Positions 12,170 through 55,193 of a stretch of DNA of 64,000 bases are shown one piece after another. The DNA is from Thermoanaerobaculia bacterium (GTDB lineage Bacteria; Acidobacteriota; Thermoanaerobaculia; Multivoradales; DATKCC01): contig JANRLG010000189.1 of NCBI GenBank assembly GCA_033762835.1, positions 12,185 through 76,184 of the forward strand, in the 5' to 3' direction. The notes under the pieces are model-generated. The model was not told where the DNA came from. It saw only the letters and a program-made list of their open reading frames with translations, and ran no database searches. Each line of letters starts with the position of its first letter. The first letter of the stretch is position 1. Both the position numbers and the translations under genes were made by a program.

Positions 12170-12189
12170 CGACGGAAAGAAGGAACACC

Positions 12190-48966: not shown

Positions 48967-51483
48967 TCAGGCGCTCCGGCGGCGATTCCACGCCGCGGCG
49001 CCCGCGGCCAGCAAAGCGAGTCCCGCTCCCGAGCCCCGCGGGGGGAATCGCCGCGGAAAGGGCGTCAGCTCGCCGTCGCCGAGCACCACGACCCCCGCCC
49101 AGGCTTCCGCCGGGTATCCCGCTGCGAGCAGCTCGGCGCGCACGGCGCGGGCCGCCGTCGAGACCCCGCGGCCCTGGGCGAGCTGGCGGTAGAAGCGGGT
49201 GAAAAACGCCCGGGCATCGTCGTCGCGCAGAGGCCACAGGCTGGCGACGACGGTGCGCGTCCGCCGGCCCTCGAAGAAGGCCCGTGCGAGGCTCAAGACC
49301 CCTTCGCCGCGCAGGACAACGCCGGCGGCACTTTCGCAGGAGGACAACACGACGAGCTGGCCGGCGACCGGCAGGCCCGTGATCTCCCCGAGTTCGAGCC
49401 GGCCGTCGGCGGTTTCCCCGCCGCCCAGGTAGATGGCCGAGCGCTCGGCGTCGTCTTCATCAACGACGGCGTGGGTGCCGAAGTGGAGGACGCCCGCGAG
49501 CTGCCGCGGCTGGCCGAGCAAGATCGCCTCCGCTGCCGACTCGCCGAGGTCGAGCCGGCTGCCCGCCCCCAGGATACCGGCGATCTCCCGGCCCTCCCGG
49601 CGCGCGTGGGGCAGGGGCCGCAGGATCTGGCCGCCCGGCCCCGCGGGCAACGGCGCCGGGTCCGCCACGATCCACCCCGGCCGGTCCGGGTGCTCCGCGG
49701 CAGCCTGCCGCCAGCGCTGCCAGAGTGTCGCCGAGGGTACCCGGGTGACCGCGAAACGCTCGCCCAAGGGCGGCGCCTCGGCCCGTTCCCGCAGCAGCTC
49801 GAAGGGCAGCTTGTGCAACACGTCGTCGGGCACCAGCACCAGCCGACGAACCGTTCCCGGCAGCTCGGCCAAAGCCGGCCCCAGCAAGTCCCCATAAAGC
49901 GCCACCGCCGTCTCTTCCTCCCGCCCATCCCGCCCCGTCGTCAACCCCACGAACGTCCCTATCGCCTGCCGCCAGAACGTGCGATCCCGCTCCAGCCGGT
50001 GGACTTTCACCCCCTCCCGCGTGACCACCAAGAGCCAGCTGCCACCCCCGAAATCCCCGGACCAATCCACCCAAGGTGCGATCTGGTAGGAGAGCAAAGC
50101 CTCGTCCGGCGCCAAGGCAGCGCGGACCTCGTCGAGGGTCGCGAAGTCGTCGGCCGTGGGAGCGGAGGTCGACAGCTGATCGAGCAGCGAGCGGGCGCGC
50201 ATGCGCTCGGTGACCTGGAAGGCGGTACCAACAGAATCGCTCGTTTCCTTTGCCGCCGAGGCCATGTCCAGGTGCCGGCCGGACAGCCAGAGATAGTCGT
50301 CAACCCAAGTGGAGAAGAGCTCCGCTCTGCGATTTCGCTCTTTCTGACCCTTTCGGAGCTGTTCGATCTCGCTCAGGGCTTGACTCGCCTGCTCGCTGCG
50401 CTGGCTCGATGGCGAATACTCCCACGAAGCCCTCATCAGCTCCCTCAGTGCGTTAGTCTCCGTCAGAGCGTCCCCTATTCCACGGGCAAGCCTGACTGCC
50501 TCTTGAGCTGTGGCAAAGGCCGCATCCGGTCGAGTTCGGCCGAGTACCCGCGCCAAGCCACTCAGGCAAAAGGACCGAGTTCTGTCATCTGGCGCTGCGT
50601 CGAGACATGCCTCGAAGTGGCGTTCGGCAGTTTGGCCCGCTGAGAGGGCCGCCAGTATCCAAAGGGAGTAGGCTTTGCTCTGGTCCTGAGAGTTCAGTCT
50701 GGCCGTGGCTTCGACTGCTTGCACGGCGACCTCGCGCACAGATTCACGATCGACTTCGACCGTATTTAGCATCCACTTGTCAAATGCAGATCTGGCAATT
50801 CCGTATCTTGCCATCGCTGTCTCGCCAGGCGTCCTGGCCGACTGAAGTGCTTCGCGAAAAACAGCGCCAGCTTCATCGAAGCGTCCAAATTCCAGGAGGG
50901 CGTGGCCCTGGTAACGCAACACCTCGAGCCACCCAGCGGTTTTCTCCACCCCCACGATATTTCGAATGGCATGGATGGCGACGAGTTCGAAATCCAGTGC
51001 TCCGGTGTATTCTGCTGTCATAAGCAGGTCGATGAATTCTTTCAGGCGCGGGAGTGGCTGCGTCTTCTGAACCGCCGCATCCACTGCCTGGGACAGCTGG
51101 TCTTCGGCCGCGCTTCTTCGATCTAACTTCAGGTAGAGTCGAGAAGCATTGAAACCGGCTAGAACATCGCCCCACCCCGGCTCGCTGCTGAGTTCGAAAA
51201 GTCTCGCTGCCTCAATAAACAGCTGACTGGACTTCTCGAACTCTTCTCGCTCCTCAAACGACTGGCCTTCGAGGTAGGCAAGGCGCGGATCGGCTGGGTA
51301 GCGGTCGCGGACGGCCACCAGCAGCGAAGGAAGAGCTGGGTCGGCGAGGTGTCGGTAAACACAAGAGAGCGCAGCGCTTCCTAGGGAAGGTTCGTAGGCT
51401 GCCAAACAGCTCTCGACTTCCAAGGCCGCCCCAGCTGTGGTGCCGCTGAGTATCAGGATGACTGCTAAGCAGAGACGGTTCAC
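48967..51483 (-). CDS. Exported TPR-like + CHAT (caspase-like) protease
   Basis: Signal peptide; ERMRARSLLD, LVPDDVLHKLPFE, HFGTHA (His), LSSCESA (Cys), VASLW, WAGVV; hydrophobic tail + RRR. Confidence 0.9.
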   Translation of the reverse strand: MNRLCLAVILILSGTTAGAALEVESCLAAYEPSLGSAALSCVYRHLADPALPSLLVAVRDRYPADPRLAYLEGQSFEEREEFEKSSQLFIEAARLFELSSEPGWGDVLAGFNASRLYLKLDRRSAAEDQLSQAVDAAVQKTQPLPRLKEFIDLLMTAEYTGALDFELVAIHAIRNIVGVEKTAGWLEVLRYQGHALLEFGRFDEAGAVFREALQSARTPGETAMARYGIARSAFDKWMLNTVEVDRESVREVAVQAVEATARLNSQDQSKAYSLWILAALSAGQTAERHFEACLDAAPDDRTRSFCLSGLARVLGRTRPDAAFATAQEAVRLARGIGDALTETNALRELMRASWEYSPSSQRSEQASQALSEIEQLRKGQKERNRRAELFSTWVDDYLWLSGRHLDMASAAKETSDSVGTAFQVTERMRARSLLDQLSTSAPTADDFATLDEVRAALAPDEALLSYQIAPWVDWSGDFGGGSWLLVVTREGVKVHRLERDRTFWRQAIGTFVGLTTGRDGREEETAVALYGDLLGPALAELPGTVRRLVLVPDDVLHKLPFELLRERAEAPPLGERFAVTRVPSATLWQRWRQAAAEHPDRPGWIVADPAPLPAGPGGQILRPLPHARREGREIAGILGAGSRLDLGESAAEAILLGQPRQLAGVLHFGTHAVVDEDDAERSAIYLGGGETADGRLELGEITGLPVAGQLVVLSSCESAAGVVLRGEGVLSLARAFFEGRRTRTVVASLWPLRDDDARAFFTRFYRQLAQGRGVSTAARAVRAELLAAGYPAEAWAGVVVLGDGELTPFPRRFPPRGSGAGLALLAAGAAAWNRRRSA

Positions 51484-51887
51484 GGAGGTGGAATCGGGTC
51501 AACTTTGCCGGTCCCGCTACCGGTTCCTGGGGGAGAAACGCCATTCGTTTCTTCCCAGCCGAAGCCGGTGCCGATACCCGTCGAACCAGTTTGGATCTCC
51601 ACGGTCCCGGTGCTCCCGTCACCCTCCTCTCCCTCGTTGTTCCGGGGAGCATTCGCCATCAACATGGCGAAGCCTTCTTGGCCCTCCTGAGGGGGCGGCG
51701 GCGACGGGCTCTTGCCGGCCGGAAACACGAATCGTTGATGGTAACGCCTCGTCTGAAACTCAATGAAGAAGAAGTACTTACGGCTACCCCACTTGAAGAA
51801 GGGGATCTTCACCGCGGCGGGGCCGAAGTTGCCAGAAGATGTCGCGCCGGTCCCGGCGCCTTGAGACCCAGAATCTGAACTCGCCAT
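51480..51887 (-). CDS. Small Gly/Pro-rich protein translationally coupled to the CHAT gene
   Basis: GGAGG SD; GTGA overlap with the CHAT start; NGVSPP motif. Confidence 0.65.
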   Translation of the reverse strand: MASSDSGSQGAGTGATSSGNFGPAAVKIPFFKWGSRKYFFFIEFQTRRYHQRFVFPAGKSPSPPPPQEGQEGFAMLMANAPRNNEGEEGDGSTGTVEIQTGSTGIGTGFGWEETNGVSPPGTGSGTGKVDPIPPP

Positions 51888-52053
51888 ACCAAGATCCTCC
51901 CCGATTTTCGGGCAAGCCTACGACGGATCAGCCGTCGTGGCGCATCGCGCGGAAACTGCTGCGGATGCAGTCGAGGACGATGGAGAGGCTGGAAGATCCT
52001 CACAAACTAGAAAAAGACCCCGACGACTGCACTTCCCGCCAACGGCTCCCCGA

Positions 52054-52082
52054 TTGACCGTATGACCGGGTCGGCGTACTCT
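52054..52082 (+). promoter_or_regulatory. Sigma70-type promoter for the two small peptide genes
   Basis: TTGACC-17 nt-TACTCT, the same hexamers as the atp promoter. Confidence 0.6.
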
Positions 52083-52114
52083 CTGCTTCGCTTGATTCAA
52101 GAAAGGGGCACGGG

Positions 52115-52330
52115 TTGTTCAGTCTGACACTTATCCTCGCCTTGTTTTTCGGCAGCCTCGGTGCAATGCAGAAGAGTCCTCCCTCGCAAGCTCCTGGAGT
52201 TAGACTCGATGCGGCCACACAAAATGGAGTTACCCCACCGGCAGATGGACCCGGGTCCGGTCCCCCCGGCAGTACCGCATGGAGCGAGGGAGTCGCTCCT
52301 CCAGACACAGGCCACCCTGAGGACAACTGA
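52115..52330 (+). CDS. Small secreted Pro/Gly-rich peptide precursor 1 (71 aa)
   Basis: GAAAGGGG SD with TTG; signal peptide; NGVTPP and EGVAPP motifs. Confidence 0.6.
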   Translation: MFSLTLILALFFGSLGAMQKSPPSQAPGVRLDAATQNGVTPPADGPGSGPPGSTAWSEGVAPPDTGHPEDN

Positions 52331-52421
52331 GCGAATAGGAAAGCCCGTCTACGATGCGGCGTCCCACGTCCGCCGGCTTTTCCGAGGCCAGATCGGTTCA
52401 AGAACGAAAGGGGCTGCGACC

Positions 52422-52610
52422 ATGAAGAGCGCTTTCCTGATCTTCGCGCTTCTGTTCGGCCAACTCGCCGGGCTTGCTTGGGAGTTCTCCGTTGCGGCAG
52501 GGTCGACACCGGCGGATGACGACAAGTCTGCTGGCCCTCCAGGACAGACTGGGGTCACACCGCCGGATATCGACCCTTATCCGGGCCCGAAGCCTCCCCC
52601 TGCGGGTTAG
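52422..52610 (+). CDS. Small secreted Pro/Gly-rich peptide precursor 2 (62 aa)
   Basis: GAAAGGGGG SD with ATG; signal peptide MKSAFLIFALLFG; GPPGQTGVTPPD. Confidence 0.65.
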   Translation: MKSAFLIFALLFGQLAGLAWEFSVAAGSTPADDDKSAGPPGQTGVTPPDIDPYPGPKPPPAG

Positions 52611-52634
52611 CCAGCGGTCGAAGCCCCTCCCCCG

Positions 52635-53384
52635 TCACTCCTCCAGCGTCAATCGAAACGTCGGCGGGCAGGGCGAGCGGGTGCCGTCGGGGAAGACGGC
52701 TTCCACTTGCCACACGAGGTGGCTGGCGGGGCGGAGTTTGGTGAGCTTCTCGGCCGGGACTTCGTACTCAGTCGCGGTCAGGCCGGTGACCTGGACCACG
52801 GTGTCGAGGCCGGAGGTTCGGATCGAGAGGTCGTAGTAGACCGCCTGGGGGACGGGTTTCCAGGCGACCTTGAAACCCTTGCGGGTGACGGGGGCGTTGT
52901 CGCGTACCAGGGATTCGATCAACGAGCCGGTCGCGGCGGGCGGGCCCGGCACCGCGGGTGACGAGGCGTCGGGCACCGGCCGGTCGCCCGTGCCGCGGTA
53001 TCCCGGGTCGTCCGTGGGCGGCGACTTGGGCAGGAACACGGCGAAGCCGAGGGCGCCGACCAGGAGGGCGGCGGCGGCGGCCCAACGTGGGTCCCACCAA
53101 CTCGAGCGGGCCGGGCGCAGCGGCAACGGGGCCACCGTGCCGGAACCTGCCGTGTCGTTCAGCTTCTCGCGCTCGAGGGCGAGCGCCAGGCGCCATTCCT
53201 CGGCACATTCGGCGCAGAGCGCCAAGTGATCCACCAAGCGGGCGGTAACCTCGGGAGCCAGGCGGCCCGCCGCGGCGTCCCAGATTTTCTCCGGGTCGGG
53301 ATGGTCGGCGGGCGGTGGGCCGACCGCGGGCGCCTGCCAGGCGGCGCGCAATCGGTCGATCAAAAGGTCGTCTTCGGTGTTCAC
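52635..53384 (-). CDS. Membrane anti-sigma factor (zf-HC2, TM, periplasmic beta domain)
   Basis: HLALCAEC (HxxxCxxC), TM WAAAAALLVGALGFAVFL; GTGA coupling to the sigma gene. Confidence 0.85.
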   Translation of the reverse strand: MNTEDDLLIDRLRAAWQAPAVGPPPADHPDPEKIWDAAAGRLAPEVTARLVDHLALCAECAEEWRLALALEREKLNDTAGSGTVAPLPLRPARSSWWDPRWAAAAALLVGALGFAVFLPKSPPTDDPGYRGTGDRPVPDASSPAVPGPPAATGSLIESLVRDNAPVTRKGFKVAWKPVPQAVYYDLSIRTSGLDTVVQVTGLTATEYEVPAEKLTKLRPASHLVWQVEAVFPDGTRSPCPPTFRLTLEE

Positions 53385-53938
53385 GGCGCGTGTCCCTTGT
53401 CCTCTAAACATTGGCGGAGATCCGCCATGCCACGGTAAATCAAGTTCTCCGCCTTCTTGGCGTCCCAACCCAGCCGCCGCCCGACATCGACGACGCTGTG
53501 GCCTTGCAGGCGAAGCGTCACAGCTTGGCGCCGGGAGGCGATCAGGGCGCCTAGACACCCGCGAATCGCCGAACCCAGCTCGCGGCTCGCCGCGTGATCG
53601 CTGGGACCGGGAGATCCGGTGGGTAACTCGATCGCACCCGCTTCATCCTCGATCGGCACTTCCCGGCGTCGGCGACGGCGTCGAATTTCATCGACTACCG
53701 CGCTGTACGCCGCTCTCTTCAGGTAAAACGAAGAGAGCGCCGTTTCCTCCTCACGCCGCCGTAACACGTCCACCACCCGCAGCAACGCCACCTGCACCAA
53801 GTCCTCGGACTCGGCCGTCAGCCAGCTCGGGCAACTGTGATTCACCGCCCGCGTGAGAGCCGCCCGCAACTCGCGGTAAAGCGAGTCGGGAAGCTCACGC
53901 CGTGCTGGATCTCGAACAACTGAAGGGACCGTCATCAC
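53381..53938 (-). CDS. ECF RNA polymerase sigma factor
   Basis: SEDLVQVALLR, AYSAVVDEIRR, region 4 AENLIYRGMADLRQCL. Confidence 0.9.
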   Translation of the reverse strand: MMTVPSVVRDPARRELPDSLYRELRAALTRAVNHSCPSWLTAESEDLVQVALLRVVDVLRRREEETALSSFYLKRAAYSAVVDEIRRRRRRREVPIEDEAGAIELPTGSPGPSDHAASRELGSAIRGCLGALIASRRQAVTLRLQGHSVVDVGRRLGWDAKKAENLIYRGMADLRQCLEDKGHAP

Positions 53939-54072
53939 CGCCCGGGAGTCTAGCCCGGATTGCCCCCGGGCGAACTTTCTCTGCCCGCCTGACAGATCGA
54001 CGCCCCGGATTCCGTCGTCATGGTTTGTGGGCGAAAGGATCGCTCACGACGACCCCCGAGGAGGGAGCTCCC

Positions 54073-54507
54073 ATGACCGTGATCGACCTTTCCGTGTTGT
54101 CCGCCTTCTGGCTCGGAGGCCATGCCCGCGCCGCCGCCGAGCGCCTCTACGCCAACCATCCCGACTGGGCGCTGCCCGTGGCCTGGCGTTGCGATTTTCG
54201 GCGCCAGCTCGACACTTGGGTGGGCTGCGAGCAGATCACCCCCGTCGACGCCGACCAGATCTGGAACGCCGTGCTCTGCCAGGTGGCCGACCGCGAGTAC
54301 TTCTGCGGCTCGCTCGACGTGCTCGAACTCGTCGCCCGCCATGGCCTCGGTCGGTTCGACGCCGAGGTGGTGTCCTTCGCCCGCGCCCGTGGCCAACGCT
54401 TCCACACCGCCAACCCCCGCCTGGCGGCACTCTTTCCCGACCTCGCCACCCTCCTAACCGACGTCGCCCCCGAGCGCCGCGTCTGGGTCGCCCGAAAGGC
54501 GGCGTGA
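54073..54507 (+). CDS. Orphan, degenerate PIN-domain (VapC-like) protein
   Basis: MTVIDLSVL, WALPVAWRCDFR, FDAEVV, HTAN; SD GAGGAGGGAG. Confidence 0.65.
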   Translation: MTVIDLSVLSAFWLGGHARAAAERLYANHPDWALPVAWRCDFRRQLDTWVGCEQITPVDADQIWNAVLCQVADREYFCGSLDVLELVARHGLGRFDAEVVSFARARGQRFHTANPRLAALFPDLATLLTDVAPERRVWVARKAA

Positions 54508-54514
54508 TCATGAC

Positions 54515-54543
54515 TTGTATTCAGCAAAAAAATCTTGTACGGT
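54515..54543 (+). promoter_or_regulatory. TA operon promoter
   Basis: TTGTAT-17 nt-TACGGT in an AT-rich patch with a CTTGTA direct repeat. Confidence 0.5.
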
Positions 54544-54562
54544 CCAAGGCGGAGGTTTCATC

Positions 54563-54784
54563 ATGCGCACCACCGTCACCGAACGGGGCCAAACCGTCGT
54601 CCCCGCGAAGATTCGTCGCGACTACGGCATCGGAACGCAGTCGACCCTCGAATGGATCGACGACGGCCACACGATCCGCGTCGTTCCGCTCCCGCCGGAC
54701 CCGATCCGCGCGGCCCGCGGCAGCTCCAAGGGGCTCGGGCGACGCCTCGCGGAGGAGCGGGAACGTGAGCGCAGCGAAGCCTGA
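54563..54784 (+). CDS. AbrB/MazE/SpoVT-family antitoxin
   Basis: MRTTVTERGQTVVPAKIRRDYGI; GGAGG SD. Confidence 0.88.
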   Translation: MRTTVTERGQTVVPAKIRRDYGIGTQSTLEWIDDGHTIRVVPLPPDPIRAARGSSKGLGRRLAEERERERSEA

Positions 54785-55193
54785 TCGCTTCTTGCTCGAC
54801 ACCTCCGCGGTCCTCGTCCTGACCGACGAAGATCCGGGCTGGGACTTCGTGGAGAACCTGCTCGAGCGCGCCCGCGAGGGCGAAATCGAGGTCGTGCTCT
54901 GCGCGGTGTCGTTGATGGAGCTGTACTACGTCGCGTTACGCGAACAGGGGGAGGACCCGGCCGCGCGACTAGTGGCCTTGGTCAAGGCGTGGCCGATCTC
55001 GTGGATCTACCCCGATGAGCGCATGCTGCTCGCGGCGGGCCGGTTGAAGGCCCAGCATCGCCTGTCCTTCGCCGACGCCGTGGTGGCCGCCGCCGCGGCT
55101 CGGCGGCGGGCCGTCCTGGTTCACCGCGACCCGGAATTCGAGGGTTTGGCAGCGGCCGTGGCGCGCCAGGCTCTGCCCTACCGGGGGCGCTGA
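54765..55193 (+). CDS. vapC: PIN-domain toxin (VapC)
   Basis: LLDTSAV, SLMELYY, LSFADA, LVHRDPEF. Confidence 0.9.
   Translation: MSAAKPDRFLLDTSAVLVLTDEDPGWDFVENLLERAREGEIEVVLCAVSLMELYYVALREQGEDPAARLVALVKAWPISWIYPDERMLLAAGRLKAQHRLSFADAVVAAAAARRRAVLVHRDPEFEGLAAAVARQALPYRGR

Follow-up and report, generated by a model that had tools for sequence, protein, structure and literature searches.

Which genes lie in the short interval between an anti-sigma factor gene and the gene of a caspase-like protease in an acidobacterial genome, and do they work with the module that surrounds them? We address this question for contig JANRLG010000189.1 of a Thermoanaerobaculia bacterium (assembly GCA_033762835.1), of which the window, that is the whole analyzed stretch of 64,000 nucleotides, covers positions 12,185 to 76,184. 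In this interval the window holds two small open reading frames (ORFs), A and B, on the plus strand. The original prediction had described them as tandem paralogous secreted micro-proteins that run opposite to the surrounding operon. The orientation is as described, since the genes for a sigma factor of the extracytoplasmic function (ECF) type, the anti-sigma factor, the small gene orf135 and a TPR-CHAT protease all lie on the minus strand. We tentatively favor, at slightly less than an even chance, the reading that A and B are real and probably co-transcribed genes for disordered peptides that would be Sec-exported or membrane-anchored and would work with this module. The two genes arose by tandem duplication and might represent the species-specific occupants of a slot within a conserved module of ECF sigma factor, zinc-finger anti-sigma factor, small peptide and secreted TPR-CHAT protease.

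Both ORFs are present in the sequence where the original prediction had placed them, A with a TTG and B with an ATG start (Table 1), and ORF B is nested in a longer GTG-started ORF (52161..52610, 149 amino acids). BLASTP aligns the two translations with 24 identities over 65 positions (E=1e-7), and their Smith-Waterman score of 81 is reached by 0 of 5000 shuffles of B. Taken alone, the N-terminal 17 residues and the remainder are matched by 11 and 12 of 5000 shuffles, respectively, and 3 of 5000 shuffles that keep the hydrophobic and the tail segment apart reach the A-B score. The similarity is confined to particular frames: the annotated frames score 79 against each other, the antisense frame that shares the wobble positions scores 66 and the other 16 frame pairs score at most 32. 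Nucleotide identity at codon positions 1, 2 and 3 amounts to 0.53, 0.65 and 0.20 (49 aligned codons). When the genome itself is searched by tblastn without composition correction, A and B find each other at E=2e-4, which is only slightly ahead of a background of partial, Pro/Gly-rich matches that begins at E=0.001; a third copy is absent from that search. Judged from these alignments, A and B are true paralogues with the pattern of a diverged coding duplicate, and the paralogy and the alignable cores that had been proposed withstand the shuffle test suggested with them.

The start regions of A and B are alike as well. A TTCAAGAA/GAAAGGGG(C) box had been noted in front of both genes and is confirmed as repeat D7 (52088-52109 versus 52393-52414, 73% identity), with a gap from the end of GAAAGGGG to the start codon of 6 nucleotides for the TTG of A and 8 nucleotides for the ATG of B. 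Because the A-B spacer contains no terminator-like site in a scan of 51400-54200, co-transcription of A and B is the simplest assumption. The promoter proposed upstream of A fares differently. Its letters and its 17-nucleotide spacing are present (TTGACC at 52054-52059, TACTCT at 52077-52082), but a supported sigma-70 promoter is not borne out: a consensus scan of 51400-54200 yields 0 promoter-like sites and skips this pair because the -10 hexamer agrees with TATAAT at 3 of 6 positions only. It is best regarded as a putative promoter, read from a weak consensus match without statistical support. The hexamers are identical in four metagenome runs, and the listed differences (52035, 52047, and 52051, from a partial variant list) lie upstream of them. 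A shared ECF-type promoter for the sigma gene, orf135 and A was sought by comparing the upstream regions by eye, with nothing convincing, and an inversion scar around A and B was rejected, as only short, weak repeats are found there.

Codon statistics favor the plus strand over the antisense strand. In a log-odds model trained on 1639 long ORFs, which sets the sense frame against the antisense frame with the same wobble positions, A scores +0.07 in sense and -0.22 in antisense, B +0.16 and -0.39, and orf135 +0.10 and -0.36; 65-codon pieces of true genes score +0.36 (standard deviation 0.13) and -0.53 (standard deviation 0.22), and B falls inside the spread of true genes. The scans applied do not point to a structured RNA at A and B. 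Rfam returns 0 matches on 51300-53000, and RNA folding z scores are +1.41 for the A region, 0.04 for the spacer on the minus strand and -1.96 for the B region, where 3 of 100 shuffles are equally stable. Among the listed metagenome runs with A/B DNA none is on record as RNA; run X9, labelled RNA-Seq, is rated probably DNA and its contigs end at 52196. Overall, we consider it likely that A and B are real genes.

Relatives of the pair are scarce. In a collection of 5.8 billion protein clusters no candidate is found for A, and B finds two proteins, P0003 and P0004, on two other contigs. P0003 (62 residues) is 95% identical to B. P0004 (72 residues) shares the first 27 residues of B bar three and continues into an unrelated Pro/Asp/Gly/Ala-rich tail with a Pro/Asp-rich end; it has no match in NCBIfam. 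A joint profile of A and B retrieves from 1.84 billion representatives only P0003 and two long repetitive proteins (E ~1e-4). Six-frame searches give no credible match for this profile in 299 other genomes of the order (13 partial hits, E=4.5e-4 to 0.009, most within much longer open frames) nor for a four-row A/B-family profile in 400 genomes sampled from the class (4 hits of the same kind). The search of related genomes that the original prediction had named as a check does not reveal an A/B relative in either set. Furthermore, JGI metagenome contigs searched with B gave 598 pattern matches, of which 0 were confirmed, the ESM Atlas gave no usable match to B, and Pfam, NCBIfam and PADLOC hold no match for A, B or orf135. 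From what was predicted as a duplicated family, the duplication stands and the family does not: A and B appear to be a species-level orphan pair. The idea that gene callers would miss both genes seems to hold for A, which is in neither protein collection, but B-type proteins of 62 and 72 residues have been called elsewhere, and the 62-residue calls also do not fit the suggestion that B is hidden inside the call of the longer ORF.

The runs with near-identical DNA come from wastewater, from a biofilter, from mud and from an unlabelled metagenome. For a comparison of strains, we used one run from each of four studies (X1, X3, X4, and X9); variant counts are partial, with 54 further variant rows beyond those listed here. 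Contigs of X1, X3 and X4 cover A without indels, and the listed substitutions in A (52123 and 52246) and B (52475) are synonymous third-position changes. X3 differs from the window at 34 positions in 51636-52441; among those listed, 24 fall in 51668-51840, and 6 together with 2 indels in the 600 nucleotides from 51841. In the anti-sigma gene (52692-53100) the same run shows 39 differences in 409 nucleotides. X4 has 4 differences in the 367 nucleotides of 51985-52351, and 11 in 119 and 13 in 149 in two pieces of the anti-sigma gene. Three pieces of X1 differ at 1 of 286, 9 of 395 and 18 of 286 positions. The divergent spacer and A form the best-conserved stretch of the locus among strains. The tail of B behaves differently from its leader. 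In one X3 contig 135 other letters replace the 104 letters of 52519-52622, in a second the match to the window ends at 52498, where a third sequence sets in, and another matches the window; the contigs share the B leader, with a summed depth of 53.6 in bin 52426-52482 (region 52412-52721). The tail of B is polymorphic within one community (biofilter) and the leader is kept; B has at least two alternative tails in this one biofilter metagenome, and P0004 carries an alternative tail as well.

Both translations begin with a hydrophobic, helix-like leader (residues 2-17 in A and 3-20 in B; mean Kyte-Doolittle hydropathy over 11 residues 2.6 and 2.4), and continue into a tail rich in Pro, Gly and Asp, for which coil is predicted. 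A structure model of B places a helix at residues 3-27 (predicted local distance difference test, pLDDT, 74-80 per block) and a coil thereafter (45-60 per block). The leader of B carries a lysine at position 2 and a V-A-A/G candidate cleavage site at residues 24-27; A offers only L-G-A/M as a candidate site. The N-termini could equally well be Sec signal peptides or uncleaved membrane anchors, and export or anchoring of A and B is moderately probable. Neither peptide contains Cys, and Met occurs twice in A and once in B. No modification enzymes of ribosomally synthesized and post-translationally modified peptides were recognized among 11 neighbouring ORFs scanned, which include the sigma and anti-sigma factors, orf135, the TPR-CHAT protease, an aminotransferase, topoisomerase I, a MazE-like antitoxin and a GidA-like protein.

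Related genomes suggest why such peptides might belong to the module. A CHAT gene follows the anti-sigma gene in 12 of 18 fetched loci with longer flanks and is found within a 1.5-kb flank in 16 of the 24 best-scoring anti-sigma loci. All 16 of those loci (L025, L027, L028, L031-L034, L036, L037, and L039-L045) contain, between the anti-sigma and the CHAT gene and on the operon strand, an ORF of 38-52 amino acids with a G+C content at third codon positions (GC3) of 0.67-0.96. In the encoded peptides a polar or acidic first half precedes an invariant Cys-Cys, and the C-terminus is rich in Pro, Asp and Gly. They lack a hydrophobic stretch and occur in two tandem copies in L027 and L028. We aligned 18 of them (alignment A5; the row of L025 lacks its last 5 residues, which slightly weakens the profile and the motif count of 7 of 18 given below). 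NCBIfam has no model for these 18 peptides, and the family comprises 57 clusters in the protein collection, all annotated as hypothetical protein, without Pfam assignment and with Thermoanaerobaculia and Acidobacteriota as sources. Of 300 genomes of the order, 25 have a match to the A5 profile, and these belong without exception to two genera of family f8.

In the family to which the window belongs, the slot is filled by another type. All four members of genus g7 encode a slot ORF of 65-88 amino acids (alignment A4) with a polar leader, a W-E-x-G-x-F-x-R aromatic core and a T-P-P-D-aromatic-(D/N)-G-G tail, for which no family match was obtained (Table 1; also in L053 and L054). Genomes G004 and G005 have slot ORFs related to this type and G001 has a 138-residue ORF in this place. 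In family f4, two loci (L060 and L038) show a third type with a basic leader and a Pro-Asp-Pro-Pro-Arg end. A leader-bearing ORF resembling A or B was not found in the slot of the relatives on either strand. Across these relatives the slot is conserved as a site for small peptide genes, which are specific to the genus and end Pro/Asp-rich.

A and B sit in exactly this slot and share with the Cys-Cys and g7-type peptides (38-88 residues) their size, a Pro/Asp/Gly-rich C-terminus, tandem duplication and a rapid turnover between genera. They differ from the Cys-Cys peptides in strand, in their hydrophobic instead of polar/acidic leader and in the lack of a Cys-Cys, and the profile similarity is not significant. 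From the Cys-Cys peptides we derived a C-terminal motif of the form DP, 0-2 residues, G/P-P, 0-2 residues, K/R, G/P. Among 82,262 ORFs in the genome, 29 carry it within their final 20 residues, and B is the sole match among 22 slot ORFs, where 0.008 would be expected. The motif matches 7 of 18 members of A5 and B, and not A. A PPD-x-DP pattern is present 16 times in the genome, two of these near an ORF end, one of which is B. We take A and B to act at the same site and do not regard their membership of any slot-peptide family as shown. On contig C56 (~2.6 kb) of genome G000, overlapping frames give by far the best genome-wide matches to the tail hidden Markov models (HMMs), with E down to 2e-17; this is probably a Pro/Gly-rich repeat protein.

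Table 1. Positions of A, B and neighbouring features in the window, and of slot ORFs of the g7 type in their own loci.
Feature	Position	Strand	Remarks
ORF A	52115..52330	+	TTG start, 71 amino acids; hydrophobic N-terminus, then Pro/Gly/Asp-rich tail
ORF B	52422..52610	+	ATG start, 62 amino acids; C-terminus Pro/Asp/Lys-rich
Putative sigma-70-like promoter TTGACC-17-TACTCT	52054..52082	+	Upstream of A; read from the sequence
TTCAAGAA + GAAAGGGG box, Shine-Dalgarno-like	52096..52108	+	6 nucleotides before the TTG of A
A-B spacer	52331..52421	+	Holds a second TTCAAGAA (52397-52404) + GAAAGGGG (52406-52413) box
Antisense ORF	52000..52509	-	169 amino acids, Arg-rich; Pro/Gly part not C-terminal
Antisense ORF	52349..52558	-	69 amino acids, Arg-rich; Pro/Gly part not C-terminal
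ECF sigma factor	53381..53938	-	Pfam Sigma70_r2, r4_2; NCBIfam TIGR02937 8.1e-14, above cut-off
Anti-sigma factor	52635..53558	-	Pfam zf-HC2 E=0.0018, below curated cut-off; H-x3-C-x2-C motif visible
orf135	51480..51887	-	Small gene, GGAGG-type ribosome site, directly upstream of CHAT gene
TPR-CHAT (caspase-like) protease	48967..51483	-	838 amino acids; Pfam CHAT 2.3e-47, TPR_12 1.7e-8
g7-type slot ORF, L049	2209-2403		
g7-type slot ORF, L050	2168-2377		
g7-type slot ORF, L051	6448-6660	-	
g7-type slot ORF, L052	6001-6264	-	

The stop codon of B is 24 nucleotides from that of the convergent anti-sigma gene. The anti-sigma factor has one hydrophobic span and a C-terminal outer domain of roughly 110 residues, and its ORF, if read from the first GTG, overlaps the sigma gene by 178 nucleotides (53381-53558). 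Homologues are present in 139 of 300 genomes of the order, and since many of them align from residue 50-60 onward only, the true start is probably downstream of 53558. The TPR-CHAT protein carries an N-terminal signal-like segment and is probably a separate secreted protease. Across 11 orthologues, its CHAT columns with His (H667 and H671) and Cys (C716) do not vary. PADLOC gives only a weak BovA match (E=0.0012), and no defence island adjoins the module. A profile of the CHAT orthologues finds TPR proteins only among solved structures, with no CHAT-containing chain, and the TPR part resembles peptide-binding TPR proteins, a resemblance that is generic. When TPR-CHAT (residues 22-838; alignment of 11 rows) and the B tail (residues 27-62; alignment of 4 rows) were modelled as a complex, the score was 0.01 against a mark of 0.32; this prediction was run without controls and has no weight for or against binding.

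The small gene orf135 overlaps the CHAT start by 4 nucleotides and is translationally coupled to it. Between strains, the differences at 51735-51840 recur with a period of 3, on the third positions of its codons. The first ~50 codons are conserved, the middle (51668-51716) is strongly divergent and the C-terminus is Gly/Ser/Pro-rich. A tblastn search of 18 related loci found no homologue of orf135, and it was rejected as a counterpart of the 138-residue ORF of G001 or of the g7 profile, to which it has no similarity. A sequence similar to a box found elsewhere, CGTCGTAGGCT, was seen by eye only upstream of orf135; that conserved box, (C)GTAGTAC(G/C)CT(A/G)T, is located ~0-40 nucleotides upstream of the sigma gene start in loci L055-L060 (families f8 and f4). 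The G+C content, 67.8% across the window, dips to 56-63% at 50200-52600. This dip spans the TPR half of the CHAT gene, orf135, A and B, and GC3 within the TPR-CHAT gene is 0.63 in the TPR half versus 0.88 in the CHAT half. On the other side, an ORF of the MazE/AbrB antitoxin type (54515-54784, plus strand; Pfam E=3.7e-5, just under cut-off) adjoins the module and is overlapped by a long ORF (54027..55193).

CHAT proteases with a caspase fold that are controlled by, or act on, a disordered partner are found in separase-securin and in Csx29 with Csx30/sigma, and for Csx29, a TPR-CHAT protease linked to CRISPR, the output is a sigma factor of the ECF type. Unlike the module described here, the separase-securin and Csx29 systems are cytoplasmic and their partners are much larger, and no relation in sequence is claimed. 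The closest system that has been studied is DdvS/DdvA of Myxococcus xanthus, an ECF sigma factor and a zinc-binding anti-sigma factor that bears a TPR-CHAT domain in the periplasm, as described in the portions of PMC11506125 considered here. There, signal-induced CHAT cleavage of DdvA is proposed, not shown, to be the site-1 step of regulated proteolysis, and the signal is unknown (PMC11506125, same portions). The module in the window resembles DdvS/DdvA in its ECF sigma factor, in the N-terminal zinc-finger-type motif and single membrane span of the anti-sigma factor, and in a predicted extracytoplasmic TPR-CHAT part with a His-Cys dyad. Unlike in the fused DdvA, TPR-CHAT (with its own signal-like N-terminus) and the anti-sigma factor are encoded by separate genes ~1.1 kb apart, and the outer domain of the anti-sigma factor is short, as given above. 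A small peptide partner of DdvA is not mentioned in these portions of PMC11506125. We found no description in the literature of small peptide genes linked to CHAT/ECF modules, and the main text of an ECF re-classification paper (PMC7826278) contains 0 occurrences of "CHAT". A small exported-type peptide gene tied to an ECF sigma/anti-sigma pair has a precedent in a methionine-rich periplasmic peptide that is under such control and scavenges hypochlorite, according to parts of PMC4436054. A and B differ from that peptide in composition and have few Met residues.

How A and B might act within the module can be sketched from these comparisons. Their leaders would export them or anchor them outside the cytoplasm, and there the disordered tails would encounter both TPR-CHAT and the anti-sigma outer domain. 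In the role of a ligand, a substrate or a pseudosubstrate of the securin kind, the tails would then determine whether TPR-CHAT can cut the anti-sigma factor and free the sigma factor. A role of CHAT as site-1 protease of the anti-sigma factor is a step borrowed from the proposal in the portions of PMC11506125 cited above. We rate this protease-ligand mechanism as possible and rather unlikely. The slot position speaks indirectly for the view of the original prediction that A and B serve as signals, inhibitors or substrates, and their function is one that we infer. A still more speculative extension, which we consider improbable, is that the slot peptides including A and B are fast-evolving, lineage-specific keys to a periplasmic, caspase-like lock. 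Their exported disordered tails would, like securin, bind in the groove of the TPR part or in the active site of CHAT and gate site-1 cleavage of the anti-sigma factor. The tails of B, swapped between co-occurring strains behind a constant leader, would define specificity types.

Several observations weigh against the favored reading. One rival to it is that A and B are real small exported or anchored proteins but mere passengers, an orphan pair in a variable, lower-GC spacer that is unrelated to the module. A and B differ in strand, leader and lack of Cys from every slot peptide seen, and the window has its own operon-strand small gene in orf135. No profile connects them to the slot peptides: hhalign aligns the A/B set with the Cys-Cys set over 11 columns (probability 1.4%, E=0.036) and with the g7 set over 4 columns. 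Among 82,262 ORFs, A and B come only at ranks 236 to 1639 when HMMs built from the Cys-Cys peptides, from the tails of these or from the family-f1 core are used, and the antisense ORF does equally well or better there. In a search with the full A5 HMM, A and B are not among the 1303 listed hits of their own genome, where the antisense slot ORF has rank 172, and the A5 search of the order gives 0 matches in G000. The C-terminal motifs were, moreover, chosen after B had been seen. The possible own promoter, the G+C dip, which suggests a different history, and the missing relatives in the 299 and 400 genomes also speak for passengers. Against them stand the position, which is exactly that of the small Pro/Asp-tailed peptide genes in many relatives and where two loci likewise carry tandem copies, the C-terminal motif of B with its low expectation by chance, and the strain comparison, in which no other part of the locus is as well conserved as the pair together with the divergent spacer on the side of orf135-CHAT. 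We regard passengers as unlikely, if a serious alternative to peptides that work with the module.

Other points concern translation and export themselves. GC3 is 0.54 in A and 0.65 in B versus 0.80-0.90 in the neighbouring core genes, the codon score of A is below the 5th percentile of true genes, a weak coding signal, and residues 1-17 of A include no basic residue before or in the hydrophobic stretch. The synonymous count comprises three listed sites, two of which (52123 and 52246) are also synonymous in the antisense frame. Moreover, 51841-52441 is only ~1% divergent between strains, wobble sites included, and its flanks are 6-14% divergent, a conservation not accounted for by coding alone, for which either a recent recombinational sweep or a constraint at the DNA level may be responsible. 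If neither ORF were translated, the region could be regulatory or otherwise constrained DNA, for instance a control region of orf135-CHAT with a duplicated element, and the likeness of A and B a by-product of DNA duplication. Besides the low synonymous divergence and the weak GC3, the absence of A from protein collections and of any known family or relatives would agree with this. It is harder to reconcile with a likeness that follows one register, with third positions far less alike than first and second ones, with the start-proximal GAAAGGGG box before both ORFs, with the open frame and Pro/Asp composition kept in the alternative tail of P0004, with positive sense codon scores and with the Rfam and RNA stability results, and we judge untranslated DNA to be fairly improbable. 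The real genes might instead be the two wobble-sharing, Pro/Gly-rich antisense ORFs on the minus strand, the strand on which relatives encode their peptides relative to the operon. Their translations score 66 against each other, the 169-residue ORF lies slightly above A and B with the tail HMMs, and the two listed substitutions in A are silent there too. Their codon scores are, however, typical of antisense frames, A and B are mutually out of frame, so that the 169-residue ORF cannot cover both in matching register, and differences at 52347 and 52475 alter its residues. In addition, their Pro/Gly part is central or N-terminal, unlike in slot peptides, the remainder is Arg-rich, and gene callers elsewhere have picked the plus-strand 62-residue form. 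We consider genes on the minus strand very unlikely.

ECF switches with a caspase-like TPR-CHAT trigger have only just been described, and in the portions of PMC11506125 considered here their input signal is unknown. Many Acidobacteriota-type genomes hold a small, fast-changing peptide gene beside a split version of such a switch. Should the link to the module fail, A and B would still be a clean example of orphan micro-proteins invisible to gene callers. If it holds, A and B, with their export-type leaders and the strain-variable tail of B, are concrete candidates for the missing ligand or substrate. If, furthermore, slot peptides served as lineage-specific keys, the tails of B would be specificity types like the pherotypes of pheromones, and the module would be a peptide-gated, strain-discriminating ECF switch.

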